In this document: one piece after another, positions 4,255 to 22,917 of the stretch
Position numbering within the stretch: the first letter of the stretch is position 1
How the letters are laid out: every line of letters starts with the position of its first letter
NCBI RefSeq assembly: GCF_045037415.1
Contig: NZ_CP173438.1
DNA: 64,000 bases
From: Escherichia coli
GTDB lineage: Bacteria; Pseudomonadota; Gammaproteobacteria; Enterobacterales; Enterobacteriaceae
Reading direction: 5' to 3' (one strand)
Made by a program: the position numbers and the translations under genes
Notes under the pieces: generated by a model
What the model saw: the letters and a program-made list of their open reading frames with translations, nothing else
The model's database searches: none
Told to the model about the DNA's origin: nothing

Positions 4255-4896
4255 TTACGCTTTCAAACCATACGTTTTGAATTTTTCAAGGACGATGGTC
4301 ATTTCGGCTTCAGACAGCACGGGAACATCGTGATGTAATCCGCCACATTTGATGTATAAATCAGCCAGCGTCTCGGTTTCACCCGCCAGCCACAACGTCT
4401 TTTCCAGCGTGACGTCCATGGCCAGCATACCGTGGTGCTGCATCAGCAAGGACTTACTTTCTCTGATTCCTTTAGATACACCGTCGGCCAGTTCAGGACT
4501 GCCAAAGGTATAATAGGGAATACAGGGAATATGATCCGTCCCCGATACCGCCACCATATAATGAATGGCCGGAATTGAATGATTATGTATTGCCACCGCC
4601 GTGGAATTCACCGCATGCGTATGTATGACAGCATTCAATTCTGGTCTGGCTTTATAACACGCCAGATGAAATAACCATTCACTTGATGGTATTTTACCCG
4701 CTTCAGGTATTCCCTTATCGTCTACAAAGACAATCATGTCCGGCGTCATCTTTGAATAAGCGATCCCACTCGGCGTAATCAACATGCCACCGGTATACCT
4801 GGCACTCACATTACCTGATGTTCCTTGATTAAGACCTGACGCATTCATTTCCCGACAAGTGGAAATGATTTTTTCTGCTAACTTAATCCGTTCCAT
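4255..4896 (-). CDS. Class II aldolase/adducin-family protein (DHAP-shunt type aldolase)
   Basis: 213-aa ORF with class II aldolase signatures (GTSGNVSAR, metal-binding His cluster HTHAVNSTAVAIH); immediately downstream of mtnA. Confidence 0.8.
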   Translation of the reverse strand: MERIKLAEKIISTCREMNASGLNQGTSGNVSARYTGGMLITPSGIAYSKMTPDMIVFVDDKGIPEAGKIPSSEWLFHLACYKARPELNAVIHTHAVNSTAVAIHNHSIPAIHYMVAVSGTDHIPCIPYYTFGSPELADGVSKGIRESKSLLMQHHGMLAMDVTLEKTLWLAGETETLADLYIKCGGLHHDVPVLSEAEMTIVLEKFKTYGLKA

Positions 4897-4926
4897 TCCT
4901 GATCCTTAATAGCAATGGCCGCCGTT

Positions 4927-6042
4927 TTAATGCTGTTCCCCCTGGAGTGCTTTACTCTTCAGGTCAGCAAACATATCCGCCAGCGCTGACTTACTGGCAG
5001 CACAGACTCCCCGCTCAGTAATGAAGCCGGTAATGTATCGGGCAGGCGTGACGTCGAAAGCGTAGTTCCCACAACGGGTTCCTTCAGGGGCGGTATTGAC
5101 CCAGCTCAATTCTCCCTGAGGGTTTATCCCATAGACATGGGACTGCTCTTTTCCGTCACGTTGCTCAATCGGAATGCTTTTTCCGTCCTCGATAGTCCAG
5201 TCAATAGTGGGAGAAGGTAACGCGACGTAGAAGGGAACATGGTTATCATGGGCCGCCAGCGCCTTAAGATAGGTACCAATTTTATTACAGACATCCCCTC
5301 TGGCCGTGGTTCGATCGGTCCCAACAATGCAGAGATCAACGTCACCGTGTTGCATCAGGTGGCCACCCGCGTTGTCGGCGATCAGGGTGTGAGGAATACC
5401 GTGTGAGCCCAGTTCAAATGCCGTGAGTCCGCCCTGATTACGTGGCCGCGTTTCATCCACCCAGACGTGAACAGGGATTCCGTTTTCATGCGCTTTGTAG
5501 ATGGGAGAAAGCGCGGTTCCCCAGTCTACAGTCGCCAGCCAGCCTGCGTTACAATGTGTCAGGATATTGACCACACTCCCGGCCGGTTTTTTCTGGGCTA
5601 TTTCGCGGATGACTTCTGTACCATGTAATCCAATTTGTTCACACAACGCGACATCTTCCTCGGCAATTTCTGCCGCCAGCGCCCAGGCCACATCCTTGCG
5701 CTCTGATACACAGAGATCCTTCAGTGTGTCTATCATCCTGTCGAGGGCCCATTTGAGATTAATTGCCGTTGGTCGGGTTTTGATAAGAAGGTCATAGTAA
5801 CGCTGCAGACCCATGTCACTGGCATCGTGATTCATTCCCAGCGCGATGCCATAGGCTGCAACGACACCAATAAGCGGAGCGCCACGAACCCACATCTCCT
5901 GAATAGCCGTAGCGGCCATTTCCGCAGAGGTAAGCGCCACCACCTCGAACTTAAAAGGCAACTTAGTCTGATCGATGATTTCTACCGCTTTTCCATCCCC
6001 GGAAACCCAGACCGTACGATAGTGTTTACCTTTAATATTCAT
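4927..6042 (-). CDS. mtnA: S-methyl-5-thioribose-1-phosphate isomerase (eIF-2B alpha/beta/delta family)
   Basis: 371-aa ORF; N-terminus ...[19 protein letters not shown] and ...[20 protein letters not shown] typical of MtnA. Confidence 0.85.
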
Positions 6043-6051
6043 AATGACCTC

Positions 6052-7311
6052 TTACTTAACCTTCGCAGACTGGATGACGGAATCCATATTTTTAAACTGG
6101 CGGGCATTGACGATAAGATCGCGCGCCATGGTCAATGCACGTCGTTCACATCCTGCGCGAAGCTCTGTATTTTCAATCTGTTTCAGCTCGGCAACGCCAG
6201 CAAAACCAATGATCCGGCGATTCATTTCCATGCCGGCATTCACCAGGGAATCTTCAAGCAGCGTGGCAAAAAACTGATCCTGTGCGTCCTCAAGAGCGGC
6301 CCTGTTCTGTTGATACATTTCTGTCGGCCACGCGTCGCCCTGTGTTTTGTTGTCCCAGAGCTGGCGGAACTCCCGGGTGAAAACGGACCAGGTTTGGACA
6401 ATCTGCTGAAGCAGCCATTCCTGATAGTCAGCGCGACGTTGCTCATTCGCATCCCACCCAGGGCGTGAGAAGTACGCCAGCAGGAGGTTGCCAATATAGT
6501 TGCCGATATCAAACGCCATTGGCCCCATGAAACCGAACTCCGGATCAATCACTTTGGTATCCGTGTCGGTCACCATGATTGAGCCTGAATGAAGGTCGCC
6601 ATGTAACAATGCCTGCGCTTCTGTCATAAATTTGTACTTATAACGCATGGCAACCTGGATCATCTCTACATCAGCCCAGGCCTTATGGACGGCATCGTCC
6701 AGCTCAGGAGAAGTCCAGTTATTCCGTTCAGCGTTGTAATAGGGCTCTGTGAAGATCAGATCTTCCGTAATTTTGCACAGCTCATGATTCAACGCGAACT
6801 CGGCAGTAAGCGCTTTTTTCTGTTCTGCTGACATGCCAATGTCAGACGTATTGAAGAGAGTCTGTGCTAAAAATCTGCCGATATCTTCAGCTAGTTTAGG
6901 GAATTTTTTACCGTTAATCAGTTCCTTACGCAGAATCACGTGAGGAGTCAGATACTCCATGGCAAACAGCGCCATTTCCGGGTCGTAAAAATAGACCTGC
7001 GGAATCAGTGTGTGACCCGCGTACTTGGCTTCCTGACATAAGACGTTGTACTCAAAGCCCGCACGGCTCAGAGATAAAGGCCATCCTTCGCCCCCTGCAC
7101 GAAGCCAGGGCAGAGCTTGTTTTACAATGATGGTTTTATGTGTCCCCTCAACGATAAACACCATGTTCAGGTTTCCGTCCCCCACTTCTGAAACTTTCCA
7201 CTCTTCAGGTAACCCTCCCGGTTCGCATGAAGGGGTCAGTCTGGACGAGAGATAACCCGGCAGCGTGTCACATGTCAGCGGCTTGTAACCTGATGGAATT
7301 GAATCCGTCAT
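6052..7311 (-). CDS. mtnK: 5-methylthioribose kinase
   Basis: 419-aa ORF with aminoglycoside-phosphotransferase-like kinase fold motifs (HGDLHSGSIMV, DPEFGFMGP); 10-bp gap to mtnA. Confidence 0.85.
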   Translation of the reverse strand: MTDSIPSGYKPLTCDTLPGYLSSRLTPSCEPGGLPEEWKVSEVGDGNLNMVFIVEGTHKTIIVKQALPWLRAGGEGWPLSLSRAGFEYNVLCQEAKYAGHTLIPQVYFYDPEMALFAMEYLTPHVILRKELINGKKFPKLAEDIGRFLAQTLFNTSDIGMSAEQKKALTAEFALNHELCKITEDLIFTEPYYNAERNNWTSPELDDAVHKAWADVEMIQVAMRYKYKFMTEAQALLHGDLHSGSIMVTDTDTKVIDPEFGFMGPMAFDIGNYIGNLLLAYFSRPGWDANEQRRADYQEWLLQQIVQTWSVFTREFRQLWDNKTQGDAWPTEMYQQNRAALEDAQDQFFATLLEDSLVNAGMEMNRRIIGFAGVAELKQIENTELRAGCERRALTMARDLIVNARQFKNMDSVIQSAKVK

Positions 7312-7926
7312 AACAGTTCTCCTTGTCTACACAGAATGATAATCAACTTGTCATGTGACAACTATACATTATCAAATGTAAAATTATTTGTGACACATGT
7401 AGATTTTTTGAACTGTATAATATTAAAAATGATGTCGTATGGAGTCATGATCTTTACAGGAATCAGCAGAGGAAAACATCTATTATTACCATGTAATTCA
7501 TGTTGTTATGTCGCAACAATAGTACTGCACGGGGAATTATTACGGGCAAACTTAGGCGAAAGGAAGTACTGAAGTGACAGAATAAATCACACTTTTTGTA
7601 CATATGTACTTTTCTATTGTCTTTTGTTGTGGAAACAAATAGTGTTTGTCATGCCGATGCTAATAGACAGATAGATTCGAGGGCCAACAGCCCCATCATC
7701 ATGATGGAGCAACAGAGGTGAGTCTAACGTTTCCGCACTTCTTATCGATCGGCACTAACGATCAATATCGATAAACTGATCTATCAAAACGATTATCTTT
7801 CTTGCAACCTGCCTGGTTATCCTTCTCTTACATTGCTCGCAGAAAAGCCCTTTTATTACGGTTAGTTATCTAGCTGAGACTTGCTACGCCCATTTTCCAT
7901 GTACCCCAAATCACGAGGTCACAAAG

Positions 7927-8104
7927 GCGCGGAAAGATGAAGAGATGTGCACGTTGCAACAAAAAAAGAAGCGTCCTTGAACAGAGGCTCTCACTCGATA
8001 AAGAATTCTGCGACGAGTGCTTATTCGATATCGATGAGGAAATCAGGGAAAGAAGGATTATCACGATCAGACGCCTCAAAGATGACAACGAAAGAAAATC
8101 GTAG
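7927..8104 (+). CDS. Hypothetical small zinc-ribbon protein (56 aa, CxxC...CxxC)
   Basis: ATG at 7927, ORF MKRCARCNKK...FCDECLFD... to TAG at 8102-8104; below the 60-aa ORF-track cutoff; weak RBS. Confidence 0.2.
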
Positions 8105-8110
8105 CTCAAT

Positions 8111-8857
8111 ATGAAAAATGGAATCGATGTCAGCGTCATTATCCCTGCTTACAACGCCGCTGAAACCAGCGTTAGTTTGGTTACTAAAATCCTCAGTGAA
8201 CCCCACTTGGCTATTGAACTTATCATTGTCGATGACGGTTCTACTGATGAAACTGGCAACGTTCTTCGTCAAATCCACGATGATCGGCTCATTCTCATTG
8301 AGCAGGCCAATCAAGGTGTCTATGCCGCCCGAAATGCTGCTCTAGCCTTGCACCAAGGAGAATAGGTTATATTCCTTGATGCGGACGACGATATAGCAGA
8401 TGGGTTCATAGAAAAAAGATGGCAGGCAGTTAGTACGTCGCAAGCCGACGTCATGATCTTTAATGGCTGGCATTCCTGTGCTGACCAACATCGAAGAGCG
8501 GTTCACAAAAAGCAGCCCTATGGTACGCCTCTGTCAGGTTATTAATGGATTAGACACTGTGTTACACACCGCGAATGGCCGCATTATCTGTGGCTGCAGA
8601 TGGTCAGGCCATCCTATGTCAGGCAGCATTCACTGCGCTTCCAGTCCGGCAGGAGCCATAAAGACATTTTTTAAACGGTTCATCTTGCAGCGAGCAATGG
8701 TTGATTCTGTACATTGGATATAAAGGACTATATCTATATCAACAATAAGGCCTCTATCACACATCGGCCGGATTACTACGTTGTTCGTGCTATAAACTAT
8801 GTTGAAGTGATCGCGAAAATCATCCAAGTAGCGGAACAAGAACAAAACAAAAAATAA
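8111..8857 (+). pseudogene. Family 2 glycosyltransferase, degraded by frameshifts and stops
   Basis: Intact N-terminus VSVIIPAYNAA...IIVDDGSTDET, then DxD motif (FLDADDD) and later segments only in other frames. Confidence 0.5.
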
Positions 8858-9468
8858 AGGTATTTTTGTACCGGCATGCGCTGGTAGAGGCACGTCATTT
8901 TTTGGGACTCTACCGCAATCGCGTTGGGGATAAATCGGGCATGAAGGACTGCTTCAAAGCGAACATATTCGCAGCCCATTTATTCAGAGGTATCAGCAGT
9001 TTTAGCGATGTGTTTTTCTTTATTAAGCTGCTGGGCAAGCTATTCTGATAAGTTGTGCGTTGCTACACGACACCAGCGCACAGCTTAATTTCACGCTTTC
9101 TGACTAAATTGTTCAGGCCTTTTCTATAGGTGCAAACACAACTCCCCGTACTTTCCTCTTCCAACTCAAAATCATCGCACCTTGCTGACCCAAGAAGGGA
9201 GCATACCCTGCACTAGTATCCGCACAGCTAATACTCTATTGATACCAACAACGCTTCAGCACAACAAAGTAACTCGATAATCACAACTCAAAGTGAAGAT
9301 GCCAAAAACTCGTTTGAGAGCAATAAATTCAATAACATGAAAAAAATGTATTTTGCATTGAAAATCTTACTTATTGCGCTTGGCTACAATTGCATGCTTG
9401 GTAATATAGATTATAAAACACCAGACTAGCTGCCTGGTAAGTAATGTAATAGCAGAGGAAATATCACG

Positions 9469-11544
9469 ATGGATCTTGTAGATAGTGTCGAAGCAGGTAA
9501 GCTGACGATCAGTGAATTGATTGATGCCCTGGCGAAAGATAAAAATTACTCAGCTTCCAAGTGGGATCAGCGATACCGTGAATTTACGACCTTGCTACAA
9601 CAAACCTCAACTTTTTCTGAACCTGAAACGGATGGTTTAGTCAAGAGGCTCTGGTATGAACGCGATAACGGTATTGCCAGTATTCGCCAGGGCGTTCCAT
9701 CCTTAGCAGAATATCAGCAAAGCCTGCCACTGCTTAGAGAACTAACTGAACGAATTCGGCAACAGCCGGATGAAGAAACTTACCAATATGTTGGCAATGC
9801 ACTACAACAAGCTAAAGAAAACGGACTTCTCAAGCGTATGTATAGGAGTTTGAGAAATCGCGTCTTTGCCGCGTTCTCGCCAGAAAACTACACCAGTACT
9901 GTGGATGAGAATGCTTTTAGTAAAGCAGCAGAATTCCTAAATCAGCACTTCCATCTCGGTCTGGCACTGACCGGAAATTGGTTACAGAAAAACTATGAAT
10001 TGAAACAAGCCATACACGCCCAATCTCCTGACACAGATCCTTATTACGTGAATATGGCCATCTGGCATCTCTATGAATTGCTCCGTGAACGCGATAATGA
10101 ACAAAAGCAGGAGAAAATAGCGAGCACTACATTCATAACCAGCAATGAGCCCATCGAGAACAAGATCATCCTACATTCACCAACTAACGTGATCTTCTTT
10201 GGCCCCCCTGGCACTGGCAAAACCTTCAGGTTGCAGCAAAAAATGAAAGAGTACACTTCTCATGCTGTTCCAGCTGATCGTGATGCCTGGCTGGATTCTC
10301 GCCTTGAATCGTTGAATTGGATGCAGGTTATAACGCTGGTGCTGCTCGATCTTGGGAAACGAGCCAAAGTTCGCCAAATTATTGAACATATGTGGTTTCA
10401 ACGTAAGGCATTATTAAACGGTCGTAATGGCAACCTATCGAATACAGCCTGGGCAGCTTTGCAATCCTATACAGTTCCCGAGTCGTTAACCGTTGATTAT
10501 AAGAATCGGCGTGAGCCTGCCGTATTTAACAAAACAGATAACAGCGAATGGTTGCTAGTTGATTCACAGCTCGAGCAAGTGGAGGATTTGGTAGAGCTCT
10601 ACGCCGAACTTAAACGAGGCCCTAAATCTGCCGAAGCCATCCAGCGTTTTGCGGTGGTTACGTTCCACCAATCTTACGGCTATGAAGAATTTATTGAAGG
10701 TATACGCGCTCGCTCTGACGAGAGTGGCAATATCTCTTATCCCATTGAGCCGGGTATCTTTATGCGCCTTTCCCAACGTGCCAATGCCGATCCAGGACAT
10801 CGCTACGCCATTTTCATTGATGAGATCAATCGCGGTAACATATCCAAGATCTTTGGTGAACTAATCTCACTCATTGAAGTAGACAAGCGTGCAGGCATGC
10901 CCAATGCAATGAGCCTACAACTGGCTTATAGCGGTGATCACTTCAGCGTACCCGCCAATGTCGATATCATCGGAGCCATGAATACAGCGGACCGTTCTTT
11001 AGCTCTGATGGACACGGCTTTGCGCCGTCGCTTTGACTTTGTCGAAATGATGCCCGATCTCTCTTTACTGAGTGGAGCTAAGGTGAAAGGCATAGAGCTC
11101 GAGTCGTTGTTAGAGAAACTCAATAGCCGCATCGAGGCTCTTTACGATCGTGAACATACGCTGGGGCATGCGTTCTTTATGCCGGTAAAAAATGCACTCG
11201 ATGCCGGTGATGAAGAAGCTGCGTTTAAACAATTGAAGATCGCATTCCAGAAAAAGATCATTCCGCTTTTACAGGAATACTTTTTCGATGACTGGAACAA
11301 GATCCGGTTGGTGCTGGCAGACAATCAAAAGCAAGACGACAACCTGCAATTCGTGATTGAGAAAACCGACGATCTCGATACGCTTTTTGGTAACAACCAT
11401 GGTTTACGACACCATGATCAGCAATCAACAGCTTACGAACTCAAAGATTTCGATCAAGAGATCTGGAATATTCCACAGGCTTATCGTTCAATTTATCAGC
11501 CCCAGCAGACTCCCCTTGATGAGCAGGCTGTAAATCATGGGTGA
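9469..11544 (+). CDS. McrB-family AAA+ GTPase (type IV restriction subunit) with non-canonical ~230-aa N-terminal domain
   Basis: Walker A FFGPPGTGKTF; McrB signature FHQSYGYEEFIEG; Walker B FIDEINRGNISKIFGE; MNTADRSLA...ALRRRF. Confidence 0.85.
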   Translation: MDLVDSVEAGKLTISELIDALAKDKNYSASKWDQRYREFTTLLQQTSTFSEPETDGLVKRLWYERDNGIASIRQGVPSLAEYQQSLPLLRELTERIRQQPDEETYQYVGNALQQAKENGLLKRMYRSLRNRVFAAFSPENYTSTVDENAFSKAAEFLNQHFHLGLALTGNWLQKNYELKQAIHAQSPDTDPYYVNMAIWHLYELLRERDNEQKQEKIASTTFITSNEPIENKIILHSPTNVIFFGPPGTGKTFRLQQKMKEYTSHAVPADRDAWLDSRLESLNWMQVITLVLLDLGKRAKVRQIIEHMWFQRKALLNGRNGNLSNTAWAALQSYTVPESLTVDYKNRREPAVFNKTDNSEWLLVDSQLEQVEDLVELYAELKRGPKSAEAIQRFAVVTFHQSYGYEEFIEGIRARSDESGNISYPIEPGIFMRLSQRANADPGHRYAIFIDEINRGNISKIFGELISLIEVDKRAGMPNAMSLQLAYSGDHFSVPANVDIIGAMNTADRSLALMDTALRRRFDFVEMMPDLSLLSGAKVKGIELESLLEKLNSRIEALYDREHTLGHAFFMPVKNALDAGDEEAAFKQLKIAFQKKIIPLLQEYFFDDWNKIRLVLADNQKQDDNLQFVIEKTDDLDTLFGNNHGLRHHDQQSTAYELKDFDQEIWNIPQAYRSIYQPQQTPLDEQAVNHG

Positions 11545-12823
11545 AGTTATCTCCGTTTTTGAATATGACCTATTGGGGAGTGACAAAGCGGCTTCAGTTG
11601 GCGCAAAACTGGTGCCTCCACTGGTCTTTAATTATTTAGAAGCGCTTAGCTTGGCAAGTAATCAAGGGAGCCAGTTCCTCAAACTCACCTCTCGCTCAGG
11701 CTTCAAATTGCTTCAGGTTCAAAACTACGCGGGGATGCTTTCAACACCTCACGGTTTCCAGCTTGAGATACTGCCCAAGGTTGGTAAAAACCTCACAGCG
11801 GCTAATGCACGTCAAACATTACTGACGATGCTAAGCCATTTGCCTGGGTTTCGACATATTGAAACTCAGCAAGCCACTCTTCAGGCTCAGCGTATGCCTT
11901 TGCTTGAGATTTTTATTCACCAGTTTTTGCATAGCGTTAGCCAATTACTTAAACAAGGTTTACGCTCCGACTATGTGAGCGAGCAAGGTAATCTGGCTTT
12001 TATGAAGGGCAAGCTGATGCTTTCTGCACAGCTGCGACATAACGCGGTGAATCGCCATAAGTTTTGTGTCGATTATGATGACTACATGCCTGATTGTGCA
12101 GCCAATCGGCTCTTACACTCCGCGCTAGATAAGCTTCTTAGTCTAAAGCTGTCATCAGAGAATCAACGCTGGCTTTACGAACTGCGCTTTGCGTTTGACG
12201 GTATTCCACTTAGCCGGGATATTGAACGTGATATAAACAACTTACGCCTCGAGCGTGGTATGGCTCATTACAACGAGCCAATGGCGTGGGCGCAATTGAT
12301 CCTGAGAGGAATGAGTCCGAGTGCTTTGCAGGGAAACACCAAAGCGATATCACTTTTGTTCCCTATGGAAGCGGTATTTGAATCCTTTGTGGCACAGACC
12401 CTACCCTACGAATTACCTTCTCATCTCAAAGTAATACCACAAGCGGCTACTTATTCTCTTGTGAAGCACGGGTCTAACGATTGCTTTAAACTTCGGCCGG
12501 ATTTGTTGATTCAGTCACGTCGACCGGTACAAACCAAATTGGTGATGGACACAAAATGGAAGCTAATAAATAGCAACTCCCAAAAAACAACACAGTATGG
12601 GCTAGCGCAAGCCGACTTCTATCAAATGTTTGCCTACGGTCAAAAATACCTAAATGGGATTGGCGAAATGTACTTAATCTATCCTGCGCATGATCAATTT
12701 AACCAACCGATACAGCAGCATTTTGCTTTCTCTAAAACATTAAAACTATGGGTTGTTCCGTACCAGATAACAGCAAACCGCGGGGAGAGGATGATGTGGG
12801 TGAAGGATGTGTCCAGTATATAA
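11537..12823 (+). CDS. McrC-family nuclease subunit
   Basis: 428-aa ORF overlapping the McrB-like stop by 8 bp (translational coupling); C-terminal PD-(D/E)xK-like LRPDLL...VMDTKWK. Confidence 0.75.
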   Translation: MGEVISVFEYDLLGSDKAASVGAKLVPPLVFNYLEALSLASNQGSQFLKLTSRSGFKLLQVQNYAGMLSTPHGFQLEILPKVGKNLTAANARQTLLTMLSHLPGFRHIETQQATLQAQRMPLLEIFIHQFLHSVSQLLKQGLRSDYVSEQGNLAFMKGKLMLSAQLRHNAVNRHKFCVDYDDYMPDCAANRLLHSALDKLLSLKLSSENQRWLYELRFAFDGIPLSRDIERDINNLRLERGMAHYNEPMAWAQLILRGMSPSALQGNTKAISLLFPMEAVFESFVAQTLPYELPSHLKVIPQAATYSLVKHGSNDCFKLRPDLLIQSRRPVQTKLVMDTKWKLINSNSQKTTQYGLAQADFYQMFAYGQKYLNGIGEMYLIYPAHDQFNQPIQQHFAFSKTLKLWVVPYQITANRGERMMWVKDVSSI

Positions 12824-13547
12824 ATTTCTAGCCAAGCTGGCGATGAACCAGTCCTCTAAAAAATGGGTATAATCATAGTTTATTTACTAATTAAATTAAT
12901 ATAAAGTAATTACTTTATTATATGGAGAATTTATGAAAATGGGAAAAATTGCAGTTACTCCTAATAATGATAAAGCAGCCAGCCACTCTAAAGATGAAAA
13001 TTTAGCCACAAATACAATTAAGAAAAACGTAAAACCTAAATATGGCGATGCGGCATTTTTAGAGTACACTCGACTAATAGTTAACCACCCGAATTATTTT
13101 GGAATGCCAGATCCCTTTGGGGAAAAAGGTGAGATTCAATGGGAAGCTCCATCAAATAGGGCATCGGGGAAATTTAAACACACTCATCAACGGCGCTATG
13201 AATGGTGGAAAAATAAAGCCAGAAGTATTGGGATAGACCCTGACACTGAAAAAGCATGGATTAGTAAAACAGCTAAACTAATTCATCCACTTGGAGTTAA
13301 ACCATGCAAGAAATGCGGTAAAGAAATGGAATTATCTTACTCCTACCCAAATGAGCATTTCTTTTCTCGGGTTAGGAAACTTAATTATATAGATGAGACT
13401 TTTGAGCTATCTCAAAATGAACACATAGTTGATTTGTTGACTCGTTTAGATGATAGATTTGGTGAAAGAATATATTTAGATTTACCACATTTATTTTCTA
13501 CAAAATCCATCACGATTTGAAGTGGTCAACAAAAACTGGCCACCGAG

Positions 13548-14695
<1,148 letters not shown>

Positions 14696-15928
14696 TATGG
14701 CACCTGTGTTGTTCTGAGGTGAGCATATCACCTCTGTTCAGGTGGCCAAATTCAGTAAACCACTTCAATTCCAGATATTTCAAGCAATCTCGAAGCATGG
14801 ATTGAGTATCTAAAAGAACAATACATACCTCAAGAATCACGTATGCTTAGCCCTGGAGCCATGGCAAATCCTCCAGATCGTTTTGATGGATTTCATTCAT
14901 TTAACCGCTGTTGTCGCTCTATTGCTGATAAAGGAAGGACCAAAGAAAATCTTAAATCTTATGTTACTGACAGAAGAGTTTTCGAATATTGGGTGGATGG
15001 TGATTGGGTAGCTGCAGACAGGCTAATGGGCCAAGTTAGAACAAATAATATATTTATTAACGAGGAATGTTTGAATGCCGGAAATGGTGGTTTACATCCA
15101 ACTCCTTGCCAAGCAGATCACATTGGCCCAATCTCACTAGGGTTTTCCCATCGCCCACAATTTCAACTACTTTGCAAATCATGTAATAGTGCCAAAAACA
15201 ATCGTATGTATTTAAGTGATATAATCTCTTTATTAGAAGCTGAGAATGAAGGTCATACGGTTATTTCATGGTTCGCAGAAGAAGTATGGAATCGACTAAA
15301 ACACTCTGTAGATGATAGTGAAAAAGCCTTAAGACTAAGTAAAATACTACGTGATAATAGACATACATATATGAATCTTCTTAAAAAAATAATGGATGAA
15401 GGTTATTATACTTTCCTTGCAAGTCTTTTACATCTTGAGGTAGCCAATTATAACCCAATATTTGAGGGATTATGCATTTCAAATCATTTAACTCATTATA
15501 AATCATTAAAAAAAATAAAACGTGAATCAAAATATGCTGCTGTGCAAAAAACAAGACGAATCAGAATAGCATTTACTTCATTGAATGATTATCATAGAAA
15601 AGAAAATCGGAACGCATTTATTGTATCAAATGAATTATCTGAGAAGTTTTTCTCTGAAGCTATGGATAATTTAAAATCATTAAGTGAAATTACATCTTGC
15701 TTAGATGAAAAAATATCCGGAATAATATCTGAGAATTCAGATTCAAAAAATGAATTTCGAACAATCATTACAGATCTACGAGAAATAGTGACAAACAATA
15801 AAGAAAAATTCAACTTGATATTAAAATATCTAATATCAGGGATGAGCGAAATAGGAAAAGAACTGGAATCATATTGGGAAAATGATCGTTATGTTCGCTC
15901 AATCCCAGAAGAATTTATAGAGTAAGAC

Positions 15929-15952
15929 ATAGCCCTCTTATAAAGAGGGTTT
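15929..15952. terminator. Possible bidirectional terminator hairpin between convergent REase and MTase genes
   Basis: CCCTCTTtataAAGAGGG hairpin followed by TTTTAT; overlaps the C5-MTase stop. Confidence 0.3.
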
Positions 15953-17128
15953 TATATTCCTTTCATAATATTCTGAAGGAGTAATATTACCTCTCATGAA
16001 TAATTGATAGTCATTTTCGGGGTGATGGATATAATATTTACCACTTCCATCTTCACCATGTTGCAAAGGAGGCAGATCAGATAATGCATCCTTTACAGAT
16101 ACCCAAGATTCCTTATCTTCTGTTAATTTTTGTGGAGGTTCAATTGAAAATAAAGGGTCGTTTGAACCAACCAATATAACCCTTTTTCGGCGCTGAGGGA
16201 TTGCATAATGTTCAGAGTTTAATATCCATCCATTCATAGTTTTCATGGTTGATGAGAATTCTTCTTTGACTCTTTCAAAGACCTTACCTTTTTCCATATT
16301 CAACAAACCAGCAACATTTTCAAAAATAAAACCGTTTGGTTTTATCTCATTTAAGAGAGATTTATAATGCATAAAAAGTGAATTTCTTGGATCATCCATT
16401 GTTCTGGCATTTCCTGCCGTAGAAAATCCCTGGCATGGGGGTCCACCAAGTATCCATAATTGTTTATCAAAATATAATTTCTTAAATCCTGATATTTTAT
16501 CTGCTATTTTTGAAAAAGTTTCATTATCAGAAATGCTGCCACATAAAACTTCTTTGTGAACATTGTTTGAATATGTTTGTAGATATTTTTCTTCAATATC
16601 ATTCGCCAATAATGGAGTCCATCCAGCCCATTTGAATCCTAGTCCCAGCCCTCCAGCTCCGGAAAATAAATCGATATAATAACCAGTATTACCTATCGCC
16701 TTCTCTATTTCTTTCGCAATCAGAAAAGCTAAAAATGGGGGCACTGCATTACCGATTTGGGTATTAATTGCTGTTTGACCTCCGAAGAAAATAAAATCAT
16801 CCGGGAACGATTGTAGTCTTGCAGCTTCTCTCTGGGATAGAACACGATCTTGCTCATAGTGAATATGGCAACCATTCCCAGGTCGGTTAAAATATGTATT
16901 GATAGTATATGCAGGCATATCTGGAAGTAATCTACCGTAGTATGTTGAACGGCTTCCTTTTCCTTGTGCATAACTATCCCTAATTTGCTCTATTCTTTTA
17001 GACGGTACATCTAAAGGAATATTTTTCCAGTTGCCACCTGGCGGTACTGAGTTAACAATCATCATATCCAATTCACTTAGCTTTGCTGCCTTGTGATTGG
17101 GAATCATAAATGTTTCACTTTTAGTCAT
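15938..17128 (-). CDS. DNA (cytosine-5)-methyltransferase, circularly permuted motif order
   Basis: Motifs IX/X (RLQSFPDDFIF, QIGNAVPP) precede motif I (DLFSGAGGLGLGF), IV (GGPPCQGFSTAGN), VI (FIFENVAGLL), VIII (QRRKRVILVG). Confidence 0.85.
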   Translation of the reverse strand: MTKSETFMIPNHKAAKLSELDMMIVNSVPPGGNWKNIPLDVPSKRIEQIRDSYAQGKGSRSTYYGRLLPDMPAYTINTYFNRPGNGCHIHYEQDRVLSQREAARLQSFPDDFIFFGGQTAINTQIGNAVPPFLAFLIAKEIEKAIGNTGYYIDLFSGAGGLGLGFKWAGWTPLLANDIEEKYLQTYSNNVHKEVLCGSISDNETFSKIADKISGFKKLYFDKQLWILGGPPCQGFSTAGNARTMDDPRNSLFMHYKSLLNEIKPNGFIFENVAGLLNMEKGKVFERVKEEFSSTMKTMNGWILNSEHYAIPQRRKRVILVGSNDPLFSIEPPQKLTEDKESWVSVKDALSDLPPLQHGEDGSGKYYIHHPENDYQLFMRGNITPSEYYERNIKPSL

Positions 17129-18761
17129 AATGTTGAAAAATCCTCAATAAACTTTCTTTTTCAGCTAACTCAATCTTATCAAATGAAGACAGAAGCTTAT
17201 TAAATTCATTCAAATCCAATTTGTAAATATTTTTGGCAACATAAGCCTCAATTTTCAACTCAGCATCACAACATCCCTCTATGCAAGAAATCACAAGTTG
17301 TTTTAATTCAGAATGTTGTAATAATATTTTTTCAGACGGTATTGCAGTTTTTCGTAAGGCTGACAATGATACATGACCAGTAGCTAAAAAGCTTCTTAAT
17401 TGAAATTCAAAACAAAGGGAGTTTATAATACCAAGCAAACTAAAGAGCGAATCTTGCGAACCACTTTTATAATAGACCACCCCTAATGAATTCCCTGCCA
17501 AAGAGTTAGGAGGTATTATCGTTGCAATCATTCGCCTTTTTTGACTCGGGCGTGAAATGTCACGCCATGCAATCCTTACGAAATTAGAATTGGATAGAAC
17601 CTTATCAATTTTTTTCGTTATTCTTAAGCTCTTCTCATTATGAAAATTATACCTCCCAATCATTTTTCCTTTAATGAATAATAATCCGCCGCCACTTTTT
17701 TGTGTCCAGTCACTACTACCAGTTTCATCTATTTCTCTTCCTGCCCATATCTCTCCATTTTTTTCCAGACTACCCCATGTTGGGTATCCCTCTTGCAGCT
17801 TTCTTAACAAATGAACGGCATGAACACCTTGAGATACCGGAATGCTAAGATATTGAGAATCTATACTAGACAAATCAAAAAAACCTAGTGATTTAATATT
17901 TAAGTTTTTATCATACACACTAAGTTGAATATTATCATTAAGGGATTCACCTTTATTAAAAATAAAAGAACATGAAGAAACATCAGCACCGCCGAATAAT
18001 TTAGCCTCAGCTGGATAATAATTTATGCAATCAATCCTCCCTGAATTAAAAAACTTTTCACGTAATATGTACGATTGTTCATCTGCGAAAAAAGATGCAG
18101 GCATAACTATAGCTACCAATCCATTTTTATTACATATTTCTAAGCTAAGTTCTGCACCAACACGTGAAAGATTAGTCCCCCACCCAGCAAATTTACGCTT
18201 CGGCTGAGAATATGGCAATACTCTTGACAAATAATCATCAAACTCACGAAGAGAGTCTATATACATCGATTTCATAGATGGTTCAAAAAAATCGAGCTCT
18301 CTAGAATCTGGTTTTATATTCTCCCAAGGCGGATTGGTTATAACACAATCAAAATAATCAACATATTTTTTAAATTCATAAAAAACATCACTATTTTTTA
18401 TAGTAATGTTAATATTTGCACCTGCTAACTTAAGTTCAGACAACGCATTTTTAGCATAAGTGAGGCCTGTATTTTCTATATCGAACAGATAAACATTCCA
18501 CTCTACATCTGGAAAACCATTTATCATCCATTGTTTAATAAGCAATGTAATAAGTCGACCATCCCCTGAAAATGGATCTGCGACATTATAACTTTTTTTA
18601 TCACAGGAATTTATCAATGGTAATAACTTCTCTATCATCAAAAGAGCTATTTTTGGATCTGTATAGTATTTACCTGTCGCTTTTTTAGTGAATTTTGTTG
18701 TCTCGTCCAAGGACAGTGAATTAATTAAATGGATATGTTTCATGTAAAATATCTCTTCCAT
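17121..18761 (-). CDS. N6-adenine DNA methyltransferase
   Basis: Motif I VADPFSGDGRLI and motif IV VITNPPWE; stop overlaps the start of the downstream C5-MTase by 8 bp (operon). Confidence 0.8.
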   Translation of the reverse strand: MEEIFYMKHIHLINSLSLDETTKFTKKATGKYYTDPKIALLMIEKLLPLINSCDKKSYNVADPFSGDGRLITLLIKQWMINGFPDVEWNVYLFDIENTGLTYAKNALSELKLAGANINITIKNSDVFYEFKKYVDYFDCVITNPPWENIKPDSRELDFFEPSMKSMYIDSLREFDDYLSRVLPYSQPKRKFAGWGTNLSRVGAELSLEICNKNGLVAIVMPASFFADEQSYILREKFFNSGRIDCINYYPAEAKLFGGADVSSCSFIFNKGESLNDNIQLSVYDKNLNIKSLGFFDLSSIDSQYLSIPVSQGVHAVHLLRKLQEGYPTWGSLEKNGEIWAGREIDETGSSDWTQKSGGGLLFIKGKMIGRYNFHNEKSLRITKKIDKVLSNSNFVRIAWRDISRPSQKRRMIATIIPPNSLAGNSLGVVYYKSGSQDSLFSLLGIINSLCFEFQLRSFLATGHVSLSALRKTAIPSEKILLQHSELKQLVISCIEGCCDAELKIEAYVAKNIYKLDLNEFNKLLSSFDKIELAEKESLLRIFQHYD

Positions 18762-18999
18762 TAATAATATGGATTATATCATTTAACTTGTGAACACTCA
18801 ACAATAACTGTACATAAAAACAGTCATTAAAGATTTCCCCTAGAGTGAGCATCGCTATAAAAATTTAAATTAATTTTATCCTGCTCCGAAAGAAACAGTT
18901 ATCATTTATTCCATAAAGAATAACTTGCTTTATAATCACTTTAAATATCGATATCAATTTTAATACTATGGTTACTTACCATATCAATAAATAGCTTAA

Positions 19000-19790
19000 C
19001 CCGTTATCTCGATACCCCTTAAGAACCCCTTCCGCAACTGCAACATAATCTACGCTCATCCACATGCCTGGTGCGTATTACCGTGAAGGAGATCGGTGAG
19101 TTATTGAGTGATCTCCTTTCATGAAAATACGCACCTGGCTTTAACTGTTCCTGATATAAGTTGACAGTTTTCTGTCCGTAAAACGGTTGATGAACTTCAT
19201 CGGGCGTTTTGTATTTCAATGCCAAATGTGACCGCTCATGGTTATAAATTGCCACGAATTCTTTTACCATTTACCGGCCCTACGTCAGCTCTGCAGGACG
19301 CGAGAGTAAAAACTCATTTTCAGGATTCCGTTTATCCACTCAGCCTGCGCATTCTGGTGGCAGTTATAACCATTAGTCATTGAACAGGTTATTGATAAAT
19401 AATTAAAAAACTCAGTTTTCTGGCTCGCCTGCTCAAGCTGTTCTTCAAGTTCCCTGATTCTTTGCTCGGGTGTCAGCGGGACAGTCGCCAGAGCCACAGG
19501 CAGTCTCCTCTTTACCTGGTCAGGAAGTCCGGGGCTCCAGTCAAGCCGGCCATATTTACGCAACCAGACAAGAACGGTGGAGCGCCCCTGAATGCCATAA
19601 CTGCAGCCGGCCTGTTTATAAGTCATCTCGCCTTTTTCAACCTTCTCAACAACGGCTATTTTAAAGGATAGAGGATAATCACGTTGAGTGCGTTTGAACC
19701 CAGACATCATCACGTTCTCCGGGTTTAAGTCAGGAACGTGTCATAGCTATTCAGGACGGGTCACCGACACAAAAAAAGTCGCCCTTGAGC
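19000..19790 (-). mobile_element. IS3-family element remnant (internally deleted OrfA/OrfB), boundaries approximate
   Basis: ORF 19285-19713 has OrfA-like HTH (MSGFKRTQRDYPLSFKIAVVEK...) fused to integrase-core C-terminal pieces; 19140-19270 encodes the OrfB C-terminus (...AIYNHERSHLALKYKTPDEV). Confidence 0.55.
19072..19133. mobile_element. 62-bp mini element made of the two IS21-family terminal repeats joined back to back, flanked by 5-bp direct repeat CCTGG
   Basis: 19072-19100 matches the end at 19817-19845; 19101-19133 matches the end at 22364-22396; CCTGG at 19067-19071 and 19134-19138. Confidence 0.6.
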
Positions 19791-19901
19791 GACTCGATTT
19801 GCATACGGTATGGTGCTGCGTATTACCGTGAAGGAGATCGGTGAGTAACATCGATGGAGATCGGTTCGTGTCACTTTCACAGAACCGTTTTTAAATTACC
19901 T

Positions 19902-20651
19902 TCACTGATCTCCTTCGGTCAACGGAGATTGTATTTTCCGCATTGATTCTCCTTTAAGTTCGATCTTGATACTGCCATGAACCAGTCGATCTAGGATGGC
20001 ATCCGCATGTGTGGAGTCTCCGATCATTTTGTACCAGTTTTCCACCGGCAACTGGCTCACTACGATGATTGAGCCTCGTTGGTACATCAGATCCACTATT
20101 TCCAGCAGGTCGCTACGCTGTTCTGATGAGAGAGGTTCCAGCCCCCAGTCATCCAGAAGCAGCAGATCGCTATTATTCAGCCTGGTCAAAAGTTTGCTGT
20201 ATCTTCCATCAGCATGCCCCTGATAGCACTGTTCCATCAGCGCTTTAAGGCGATAATAGTAGACCTTGTATCCCTGTCGGCAGGCATTATGACCAAGTGC
20301 ACATGCCAGGAACGTTTTACCGCTGCCGGTGGCCCCGGTCAGTAAAATATTTTGTTTCAGGGTTAACCAGTTTCCCTGACTGAGTGAACGGATGAGGGCC
20401 CTGTCCAGCCCTCTATTGTTACGATAATCCAGCTTTGATAACTCAGCATTAAGTCTGAACCGTGCATGTTTGATCAGACGCTCTGCCTTCCTGTTTTCAC
20501 GGCAGGTTAGTTCTTCTGCTGTCAGTAATGACAGGCGTTCTTCGAAGCCCAGCTCCTGGTATGTGCCCGGTTGAGCAAGTTGCTTTTTAAGCGCATCACG
20601 GAAGCCGGTGAGTTTAAGTGCGGTCAGTTGTTCGTAAAGATGATTCATCAT
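19902..20651 (-). CDS. istB: IS21-family IstB ATP-binding helper protein
   Basis: 249 aa; Walker A LTGATGSGKTFLA, Walker B LLLLDDWG. Confidence 0.9.
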   Translation of the reverse strand: MMNHLYEQLTALKLTGFRDALKKQLAQPGTYQELGFEERLSLLTAEELTCRENRKAERLIKHARFRLNAELSKLDYRNNRGLDRALIRSLSQGNWLTLKQNILLTGATGSGKTFLACALGHNACRQGYKVYYYRLKALMEQCYQGHADGRYSKLLTRLNNSDLLLLDDWGLEPLSSEQRSDLLEIVDLMYQRGSIIVVSQLPVENWYKMIGDSTHADAILDRLVHGSIKIELKGESMRKIQSPLTEGDQ

Positions 20652-20662
20652 TGGATCCCGTA

Positions 20663-22204
20663 TCAGTGGTAATACTCACTGCCGCGTACGTTTTCGTGTT
20701 CCATCGTGGATAACAGATCTGGTTTTGGATCCTGAACAGGTTGTTTATCCAGACCTTTTTCCAGGATCGATTTAATACCTGACAGACGCCATACCTTTGT
20801 TTTCAGAGCTCTTGCACATGCTGCATTAAGTCTGGCTTTACTGTATTTTTTATGAAGGTTCAGGAGTCCAAGGCAGAAGCGATAGCTTTGTTCCGGATGT
20901 GGACGAGAGTTCAGTATATGAAGCACATAACTATGAGTTTCACTGCCTATGTGCCCCGCCCATTCCAGAAGACGCTCTGGCGTCCAGGTGGCATGCTGTC
21001 GATGAGCTTCAGGCATGTGCTCGTTGCGGGTACTGTAGCCATAAGTACGCTTGCGCGGGTGCACAGCAACCTCCTGCCCCTGATTGAAGAGTCTTACCAG
21101 TTCTCCGGAGATCCATGCTTCCAGTTGCTGGCCTAACAGCGAACATGGAACCGAGTAGTAATGTTTGTCGATTTCCACGTGGTAATCGGCATGAACTCTG
21201 ACTTTCTTCACCAGGGTGTAACTGTAACTGGCTTCAGGAAGAGGCTTCAGTGCGGGTTTATCAAGCTGGATGAAGAGTTCTGCACGTGAATAACCCAACT
21301 TCTGCATTATTTTGTTATTCAGTCTTTCCAGCAACTCCCGAATGCGCTGATTAAGCGATGCAAGGCTGTAGAAGATCTCATGCCTGATTCGGGCCATGAT
21401 CCAGCGTTCAACAACCTGAACGCCAACTTCAGCTTTGGCTTTATCTTTCGGTTTACGTGGCCGCGCAGGCAAAACTGCGACATTATAATGCTCAAGCATC
21501 TGCTGGTAGGTAGGGTTAACGTCAGGATCATACTTACATGCCCTGGATGTGGCGCTTTTCAGATTGTCCGGAACAACAAGTTCAGGAACGCCACCCAACC
21601 ACTGGAAGCAGCGAACATGACTCATCACCCAGTCTTCAAGCTGCTGAGACCAGGTGGCCTCTGCCCATGTGTAACTTGATGCCCCGAGAACAGCTACGAT
21701 GACCTGAGCAGTTCTTATTTCTCCGGTCTCAGGGTCGGTAACGCCAACGGTAGGTCCACAGTAATCAACGAAAAGTTTTTCGCCAGCTTTATGTACCTGA
21801 CGCATTGATGGTGAAGTGGTTTTGAGCCATTCACGGTACATCCGGCAGTAATGGTTATAGCTGTAAAAACCGCCTGGATTACGCTCACAGTATTCTTCCC
21901 AGAGTAGCTGCAGCGTCACGCATTTATTACGCAGTTCCCGGTGTACTGTAGCCCAGTCAGGCAGAGAGTGCTTCTTCATCTTAACCTGGGTCTGAAGGAA
22001 CGCATGTTTTAGTTTTGTATCATCCCATCCTGTAGGTAAGGGCCACTGCTTTATGCCAAGTTGAGCCGCCCGATTAGCATATCTGGATACAACGGAAGGG
22101 GAGATTGCAAGACTACGACCAATTTGTCGATGGCTGAGTCCAACACCGTATTTAAGCCTAAGAATTTCTTTAAGTTTTCTCATAGAAATTGGAACTGTTG
22201 GCAT
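20663..22204 (-). CDS. istA: IS21-family IstA transposase
   Basis: 513 aa; N-terminal HTH plus DDE integrase core. Confidence 0.9.
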   Translation of the reverse strand: MPTVPISMRKLKEILRLKYGVGLSHRQIGRSLAISPSVVSRYANRAAQLGIKQWPLPTGWDDTKLKHAFLQTQVKMKKHSLPDWATVHRELRNKCVTLQLLWEEYCERNPGGFYSYNHYCRMYREWLKTTSPSMRQVHKAGEKLFVDYCGPTVGVTDPETGEIRTAQVIVAVLGASSYTWAEATWSQQLEDWVMSHVRCFQWLGGVPELVVPDNLKSATSRACKYDPDVNPTYQQMLEHYNVAVLPARPRKPKDKAKAEVGVQVVERWIMARIRHEIFYSLASLNQRIRELLERLNNKIMQKLGYSRAELFIQLDKPALKPLPEASYSYTLVKKVRVHADYHVEIDKHYYSVPCSLLGQQLEAWISGELVRLFNQGQEVAVHPRKRTYGYSTRNEHMPEAHRQHATWTPERLLEWAGHIGSETHSYVLHILNSRPHPEQSYRFCLGLLNLHKKYSKARLNAACARALKTKVWRLSGIKSILEKGLDKQPVQDPKPDLLSTMEHENVRGSEYYH

Positions 22205-22917
22205 AGGTATCCTTTACCGGAATGGCAAAAGATACAGATCAACACACCTGTGAAGTTCCAATAACATTGATGGAGATCACTGAATAACAAAATGAGTCAA
22301 AAGTGATCTCCATCGATGTTATTCAGCGATCTGTTCAAATGTTATTACCCGATCTCGATGGAAGTTATTGAGTGATCTCCTTTCATGAAAATACGCAGGT
22401 GCGAAGGCCGGACTCAAACATGCGATTTAACCTCATGATTTAAAATTGTTAATAATAAACAACACCATCCTATACCAACACAGATACCAACACGAAAAAT
22501 CACTGGTTTTCGGCATCGAACCAGGACAATCAGGTCCTGATTGAGATACCGAGCTCTGTTACTCGTCATCTTCCTCGACAGGCTCCATTGCATCAAGTGG
22601 TACTCGCACCATCGCGATAGAACCAATCCGGATAAAAGCATCTTCCCCATCTATATCGGTTAACTGATATCGCTTACTTGATGCCGGATAATTGTGTCGA
22701 TTGGCAACAGTGTACTCTTTCGTACAGCCAGAATGTGGCAGACTGAGGTGGAATAGATAACGTCCGTATGCCCGCTGACCACCTCCGGGCGGGAGAGTGT
22801 GGTATCTGACATCATCATTTTTCCTTTCTGTTTATAAATGAAAATGCCAGCCGTGTTCAGGCTGACGTCAGGGAAGTGAAATCGGGTGAGTGATCTTCAC
22901 TGGTTCTGGTACAAAAG

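Follow-up and report, generated by a model that had tools for sequence, protein, structure and literature searches.

In a 64,000-nucleotide stretch of DNA from Escherichia coli (NCBI RefSeq assembly GCF_045037415.1, contig NZ_CP173438.1; hereafter the window), two overlapping genes at positions 9469-12823 encode a variant of McrBC, the textbook modification-dependent restriction enzymes. On balance, we favor the interpretation that this pair forms a functional McrBC-family modification-dependent (Type IV) restriction system with exchanged sensing parts, which would be aimed at non-canonical (hypermodified) bases. The assignment of the pair to the McrBC family is itself virtually certain. To our knowledge, few McrBC sensor domains have known targets. 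Swapped sensors and GTPase inserts in McrB are already known, and a 2025 preprint already lists this type of fusion (PMC12191111); the variant is uncharacterized but widespread.

The mcrB-family gene (9469..11544, + strand) starts with an ATG that is preceded at a distance of 8 nucleotides by AGAGGA, and it encodes a 691-residue AAA+ GTPase that contains an internal insert and departs from the canonical McrB in its N-terminal domain. The N-terminal all-α domain, a putative modified-base sensor with a possibly HhH-GPD/Ogg-like fold, comprises residues 1-225 (9469..10143) and is followed by the Walker A motif GPPGTGKT (residues 245-252; 10201..10224). A winged helix (wH) domain is inserted at residues 272-393 (10282..10647), and the remaining AAA+ core spans residues 394-530 (10648..11058). 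The latter features the FHQSY motif (FHQSYGYEEFIEG, residues 399-411), the Walker B region with its DEINR (IDEINRGN, residues 450-457), the NTAD signature (residues 505-508, within MNTADRS at 504-510), and an RRRF motif (residues 519-522). The C terminus is formed by the lid subdomain and a conserved tail (residues 531-691; 11059..11541). Both open reading frames (ORFs) are intact, and the motor motifs of the McrB GTPase (Walker A, Walker B, NTAD, RRRF, and lid) are complete.

McrB shares 40% sequence identity with McrB of E. coli K-12 across residues 389-608 (BLASTP). Among PDB sequences, the best match in phmmer searches was McrB from Thermococcus gammatolerans (TgMcrB; E = 9e-55), and the structures of E. 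coli McrB (EcMcrB) were matched at E = 1e-38. The Pfam family AAA_5 was found at E = 7e-11, and the NCBIfam EcoKMcrB model at E = 8e-42, the latter only over profile positions 222-448; as an equivalog of EcoKMcrB (NF008457), the protein scores 143.5 bits versus a cut-off of 637. The McrB-type lid is present: PF28529 (McrB_lid) is annotated on near-identical homologues (88-97% identity), and the alignment to the lid regions of TgMcrB and EcMcrB extends to residue 608-628. We had considered PF28529 as a description of the N-terminal domain of these homologues and rejected it, as this family is the C-terminal lid.

The mcrC-family gene (11537..12823, + strand; ATG start, 428 residues) overlaps mcrB by 8 bp, ATGGGTGA, as read directly from the sequence. 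Its product matches Pfam PF10117 over residues 59-383 (E = 5e-97) and the NCBIfam McrC model (E = 5e-28; 98.2 bits versus an equivalog cut-off of 338), and it is 25% identical to McrC of K-12. The PD-(D/E)xK nuclease motif, RPD ... MDTK, lies at residues 320-342 (12494..12562, + strand), where RPD (320-322) and DTK (338-340) align with the catalytic residues D244, D257, and K259 of K-12 McrC. Judged from its sequence, McrC retains the McrB-binding domain and the PD-DxK nuclease. The mcrC gene is adjacent to mcrB and co-oriented with it, and an McrC partner was kept in all six of the related loci examined. The first-pass annotation, made from the letters alone, had described an McrBC-family pair with these coordinates, GTPase motifs, and 8-bp overlap, and in all of these points it proved correct.

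Compared with EcoKMcrBC (PDB codes 6HZ4, 6UT6, and 7VSR), the pair shows the same arrangement of overlapping genes with mcrB first, the same Walker A, Walker B, NTAD, and RRRF motifs, and an McrC with DUF2357/PF10117 and PD-DxK. In contrast, the DUF3578/MrcB_N domain of EcoKMcrB that flips out 5-methylcytosine (5mC) is replaced by the 225-residue all-α domain. In addition, McrB possesses the 122-residue wH insert and a longer C-terminal tail, and McrC is 80 residues longer.

The first-pass annotation had also noted that the first ∼230 residues of McrB do not resemble the K-12 protein, and this was borne out. Residues 1-239 could not be aligned with K-12 McrB; the BLASTP matches start at Walker A (residues 240-253 with K-12 residues 196-209) and continue from residue 389 onward, leaving K-12 residues 1-195 unaligned. 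No Pfam match to MrcB_N (DUF3578) was found on McrB, and in the profile searches that the annotation had proposed, residues 1-232 matched no Pfam family, NCBIfam model, or PDB sequence. When the N-terminal domain or its profile served as the query in word-indexed searches, the homologues obtained were truncated fragments only. More informative was an exhaustive HMMER scan, in which 161 clusters among 1.84 billion representative proteins matched the domain (threshold E ≤ 1e-3). The majority of these are McrB homologues, and in them a stretch of 20-30 residues invariably separates the end of the domain from Walker A.

About 15 of the 161 clusters are not McrB. Here, a PD-(D/E)xK nuclease follows the helical domain; its residues D255, E269, K271, Q286, and Y290 are invariant, and its matches to PDDEXK_9 are weak. 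The shortest of these fusions, P0273, consists of 346 residues without any other domain. Because proteins of this type carry no other DNA-binding domain, it must be the helical domain that performs DNA or target recognition in them. We consider it probable that the N-terminal domain of McrB is likewise the sensor.

The PD-(D/E)xK fusions (P0273, P0242, P0247, P0266, P0279, P0297, P0251, P0272, P0261, P0288, P0299, P0265, and P0268) are single-chain proteins of 346-515 residues, with the pattern ..GGxADxxV..LYEIKV..GQLLEY in the C-terminal nuclease part. They are found chiefly in Pseudomonas and metagenomes and are all labeled "hypothetical protein"; in one of them, the helical domain is preceded by an Mrr_N winged helix.

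Many McrB homologues (P0156-P0295) possess 100-700 extra residues preceding the helical domain. The consensus of these extensions is PUA/EVE-like (LLxWNP...GDxVYLxRxG), and Pfam assigns EVE or MrcB_N in a few homologues. McrB proteins with such an added upstream domain may have two or three readers stacked.

The N terminus is not the only non-canonical part of McrB, as the first-pass annotation had implied in overlooking a second one. Residues 272-393 form a 122-residue winged helix domain that interrupts the AAA+ core after the Walker A helix and before the FHQSY strand. They are recognizable as an insertion because the alignments with both reference proteins skip them: TgMcrB aligns to residues 233-271 and resumes at residue 394, passing from its own residue 56 to 57 without a gap, and K-12 McrB has 12 residues opposite 135 in the protein studied here. 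The wH insert is absent from EcMcrB and TgMcrB. Other family members lack it and have, in the stretch from FHQSY to Walker B, a longer segment of a different kind. According to a census of McrBC systems, McrB GTPase domains often hold inserts that probably encode specificity domains (PMC11090510).

Homologues with ∼90% overall identity (P0034-P0154) show a mosaic of divergence. Identity among them is 95-99% in the AAA+ core and lid, as against 77-94% in the N-terminal domain, 79-99% in the wH domain, and 23-100% in a 13-residue linker, and these last three parts vary independently of one another. Such a pattern would be expected for target-facing or inhibitor-facing modules, and it suggests that recombination or diversifying selection acts on the sensing parts.

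The equal variability of the two domains also fits another division of labor. The inserted winged helix, a classical DNA-binding fold, might be the true specificity determinant, reading N6-methyladenine (6mA) or a sequence motif as in the wH-nuclease Type IV/IIM enzymes, and the N-terminal domain would then be a structural adaptor or an assembly or regulatory element. In the longer homologues, PUA/EVE-like or MrcB_N readers do precede the helical domain, which leads into the AAA+ core and without exception stops 20-30 residues short of Walker A, and the Mrr_N winged helix on one of the PD-DExK fusions points in the same direction. We regard this arrangement as unlikely.

Within the N-terminal domain, W32, Y36, W62, N67, G75, R131, F133, P138, W171, N195, and W199 are invariant or nearly so. 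No Asp or Lys is invariant in alignments of 22 and 36 sequences. Such a combination, in which aromatic residues, Asn, and Arg are invariant and Asp and Lys are not, would fit a non-catalytic binding pocket.

A possible precedent is provided by the END nucleases (END-PaCF1, END-Ec1, and END-Mag) of the 2025 preprint; their sensor of hypermodified phage DNA is an inactivated EndoIII/Ogg domain termed iEndoIII (PMC12191111). In that study, the iEndoIII sensor occurs on PLD nucleases, and a reciprocal search recovered it on a NucS-like PD-DExK nuclease and on McrB-like GTPases as well (PMC12191111). The nuclease fusions proved restrictive in plaque assays against phages whose DNA is hypermodified, and END-Mag, whose best HHpred match is Sulfolobus Ogg, restricts modified-guanine phages (PMC12191111). 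The N-terminal domain studied here resembles iEndoIII in being a putative all-α sensor of suggestive Ogg/EndoIII-like fold, apparently without conserved catalytic residues, and its fusions to McrB and PD-DExK nucleases, together with Ogg as its top match, fit the preprint. The effectors differ, being a two-protein GTP-driven machine in our case and a single chain in the END nucleases. No PLD-nuclease fusion was found among the matches of the N-terminal domain, and the END-Mag accession MDV2503288 is not in the clusters of the ten PD-DExK fusions that were looked up.

Several observations weigh against a glycosylase-derived sensor in a functional restriction system. Ogg was the top match by one method only. 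A Foldseek search of the N-terminal model against the PDB gave a best E value of 0.73 with template modeling (TM) scores below 0.2. Pfam searches with 36 N-terminal domains and 18 PD-DExK fusions revealed no link to glycosylases, hidden Markov model (HMM) profiles of the domain found no relative among PDB sequences, and hhalign against E. coli Nth returned nothing. The likeness to the END proteins is one of description, and the experiments of the preprint were confined to the nuclease fusions, with the McrB fusions outside them (PMC12191111). In the reader-extended homologues, the helical domain might have the role of an adaptor instead of that of a sensor. Finally, a simple promoter and terminator scan of positions 8900-13000 found nothing exceeding the shuffled expectation. 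Since the Foldseek search against the PDB was negative and profile methods gave no sequence link, the assignment of an HhH-GPD/Ogg-like fold is suggestive and not secure. That the N-terminal domain is a glycosylase-derived reader of hypermodified bases appears to us somewhat short of an even proposition. A segment RVFAAxxPxxYTSTVD resembles by eye the HhH-GPD "GxP...VD" loop of EndoIII, a conjectural likeness to which hhalign gave no support.

The same findings leave some room for a sensor that does not read bases at all. With no sequence link to any nucleic-acid-binding family, and with the many weak structural matches that all-α domains produce, the N-terminal domain might respond to a phage protein or to RNA, and the pair might act as an infection-triggered abortive nuclease. 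Some McrBC branches, the CoCoNuTs, are indeed predicted to target RNA (PMC11090510). CoCoNuTs (CnuB/CnuC) are defined by an NxD signature, coiled-coil inserts, and CSD or helicase partners (PMC11090510); the protein studied here possesses an NTAD (NxxD) signature, and genes for CSD or helicase partners are absent at the loci examined. We consider sensing of a non-base signal improbable.

For the favored reading, a modification-dependent restriction system with exchanged sensors, a working mechanism can be proposed by analogy to the EcMcrBC and TgMcrBC structures (PMC7680126). GTP-bound McrB would form hexamers, McrC would plug the McrB ring and boost GTP hydrolysis, and the complex would translocate on DNA and cut through McrC upon stalling. 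Target selection would be performed by the N-terminal domain in place of the 5mC-flipping domain of EcoKMcrB, as suggested by its fold, the domain shuffling, and the preprint. This domain may represent a catalytically dead HhH-GPD (Ogg/EndoIII-like) base-flipping module, in which a non-canonical base is probably flipped into an aromatic pocket without being excised, so that hypermodified bases in incoming phage DNA would be read rather than simple 5mC. The wH domain (residues 272-393) would serve as a second DNA-binding element that helps to load or hold the duplex at the ring. The preservation of the motor alongside an exchanged sensor is shared with TgMcrB (PDB codes 6UT3 and 6UT5) and with McrB proteins carrying swapped readers (YTH, EVE/PUA, and B3-like), although the sensor studied here is neither YTH, PUA, nor B3. 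The insert is also placed differently, following Walker A in our protein, whereas the extra segment of TgMcrB separates FHQSY from Walker B.

The methylation of the host must be compatible with such a system. An intact mcrBC coexists with an intact Eco31I-type restriction-modification (RM) system and its methyltransferases in hundreds of genomes, implying that Dam, Dcm, and Eco31I-type methylation would be tolerated. Such tolerance would fit a target that is neither simple 5mC nor simple 6mA. In its fullest form, the proposal is that about one-fifth of sequenced E. coli (many of them of extraintestinal pathogenic E. coli (ExPEC) and B2 lineages) and many other Enterobacterales carry a GTP-driven McrBC with a dead Ogg/EndoIII reader and a wH domain that restricts phages with hypermodified purines or pyrimidines (e.g. 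7-deazaguanines or glucosyl-hydroxymethylcytosine) and ignores 5mC and 6mA. Taken as a whole, this statement is tentative, and we would sooner expect one of its parts to fail than all of them to hold.

Of 5426 complete E. coli genomes, 1059 contain the 3.6-kb mcrBC segment, in every case on the chromosome, and the Prokaryotic Genome Annotation Pipeline names its products "McrB family protein" and "McrC family protein." The region that comprises yjhF-yjhU, mtnK/mtnA, mcrBC, and the Eco31I-type RM genes is 99.98-100% identical to that of strain ATCC 25922. Full-length McrB homologues with 88-97% identity are found in Leclercia, Enterobacter, Klebsiella, Pantoea, Pectobacterium, Yersinia, and Buttiauxella, and the 90% cluster that unites the close full-length homologues contains 3729 sequences.

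This conservation bears on whether the locus is an evolutionary remnant that is silent or non-functional in this strain. The island is rich in insertion sequences (ISs) and pseudogenes (a glycosyltransferase remnant, a split restriction endonuclease (REase), and an IS21 insertion), the IS3-family element ISEc52 disrupts mcrB itself in ATCC 25922, and the simple scan found no promoter. However, neither ORF is truncated and no catalytic motif is missing, 987 of 1004 E. coli genomes have no interruption at the insertion site in mcrB, the family includes the 3729-sequence cluster, and the motor is 95-99% conserved across genera. Decay of the locus is accordingly an explanation to which we give little credence.

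Directly downstream of mcrC, an REase of the Type IIS Alw26I/Eco31I/Esp3I family (12933..15925, + strand) is split into two fragments (12933-13520 and 14843-15925) by a 1250-bp ISEc52 (13518-14767), consistent with the inactivated RM module that the first-pass annotation had placed beside the pair. The C5-cytosine and N6-adenine methyltransferases of this Eco31I-family system (15938..18761, − strand) are both intact. An identical copy of the 1250-bp element (100%) interrupts the REase here and mcrB in ATCC 25922 (L001 12738-13987), in opposite orientation. Mutual exclusion of an intact mcrB and an intact Eco31I-type REase was considered and rejected, because both sites are usually intact: the REase site is uninterrupted in 612 of 631 E. 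coli genomes, compared with the 987 of 1004 for mcrB, and both genes are intact in, e.g., strains 4/1-1, 4/4, and 2/0. The difference is therefore a matter of lineage-specific IS movement and not of incompatibility. Likewise, the closeness of mcrBC to the broken REase is functionally meaningless, since both genes are intact in most E. coli genomes and the neighbors differ in other genera.

Across the loci compared, McrC is the sole constant neighbor of McrB. In Enterobacter, the pair is followed by a Type I hsdMSR system; in Pectobacterium and in a metagenomic relative, its flanks hold DUF1173 together with another N6-methyltransferase system or a Type I RM system; one distant relative adjoins IS66, and another is located inside a Type I RM operon. 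The setting is a defense-island neighborhood and not a dedicated methyltransferase partnership. Moreover, the GC content of the Eco31I-family RM genes (31-36%; positions 15000-19000 of the window) differs from that of mcrBC (42-47%) and of the flanking chromosome (∼50%), indicating that the adjacent defense modules were acquired separately.

These data bear on a comparison with LlaJI.R1/R2, which likewise consists of McrB-like and McrC-like subunits beside methyltransferases, but has a B3-like N-terminal domain and a methyltransferase linkage that are not conserved in the pair studied here, whose neighbors differ among E. coli, Enterobacter, Pectobacterium, and a metagenomic contig (IS66 only). 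That the pair is the restriction arm of a methyltransferase-protected RM system of the LlaJI/BsuMI type, cutting unmodified sites and being blocked by the adjacent methyltransferases, is suggested by its immediate proximity to a Type IIS REase with two methyltransferases and by the frequent association of NxxD-type McrB GTPases with DNA methyltransferases (PMC11090510), but it is very improbable, given that these methyltransferases belong to an Alw26I/Eco31I/Esp3I system with its own REase (curated models above cut-off) and a GC content that speaks for a different origin, that orthologous pairs at 78-90% identity reside beside Type I hsdMSR or other genes, that a distant homologue (∼36% identity in the N-terminal domain) has no methyltransferase in its sequenced flank, and that the linkage to dedicated methyltransferases is thus unconserved.

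Because the variant is common in clinical E. coli lineages, its specificity affects the entry of phages and plasmids with modified DNA, which is of relevance for phage therapy and strain engineering. In PADLOC-DB v2.0.0 (2023 models), weak "REase_II" matches were obtained on the AAA+ core of McrB only and none on McrC, so that defense inventories may undercount or miss the pair. If glycosylase-like reading holds true, the reuse of folds from DNA-repair glycosylases as immune sensors would extend from single-chain nucleases to a motor-driven complex, this would be the first McrBC with glycosylase-derived, modification-agnostic sensing, and therapeutic phages that depend on DNA hypermodification would face a practical barrier.

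Upstream of mcrB lies a pseudogene of a family-2 glycosyltransferase (GT2; 8111..9045, + strand), which is frameshifted and has only an 84-residue ORF left. Its orthologue in Enterobacter is intact (312 residues) and occupies the matching position. GT2, mcrB, and mcrC seem to have moved together, as the whole upstream block (7733-9470) is 87% identical at the DNA level to its Enterobacter counterpart; GT2 is probably not part of the mechanism.

Further features of the window include a partial second copy of ISEc52 (52000-52790; 793 bp, 98% identity) and, relative to ATCC 25922, a 2.6-kb insertion at 19817-22397 that encodes the IS21-family proteins IstA (513 residues) and IstB (249 residues). 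Directly 5′ of the defense genes, positions 4255-7311 (− strand) hold a salvage cluster absent from K-12 that comprises methylthioribose (MTR) kinase (mtnK), MTR 1-phosphate isomerase (mtnA), and a class II aldolase, which we take to be the ExPEC "dihydroxyacetone phosphate (DHAP) shunt."

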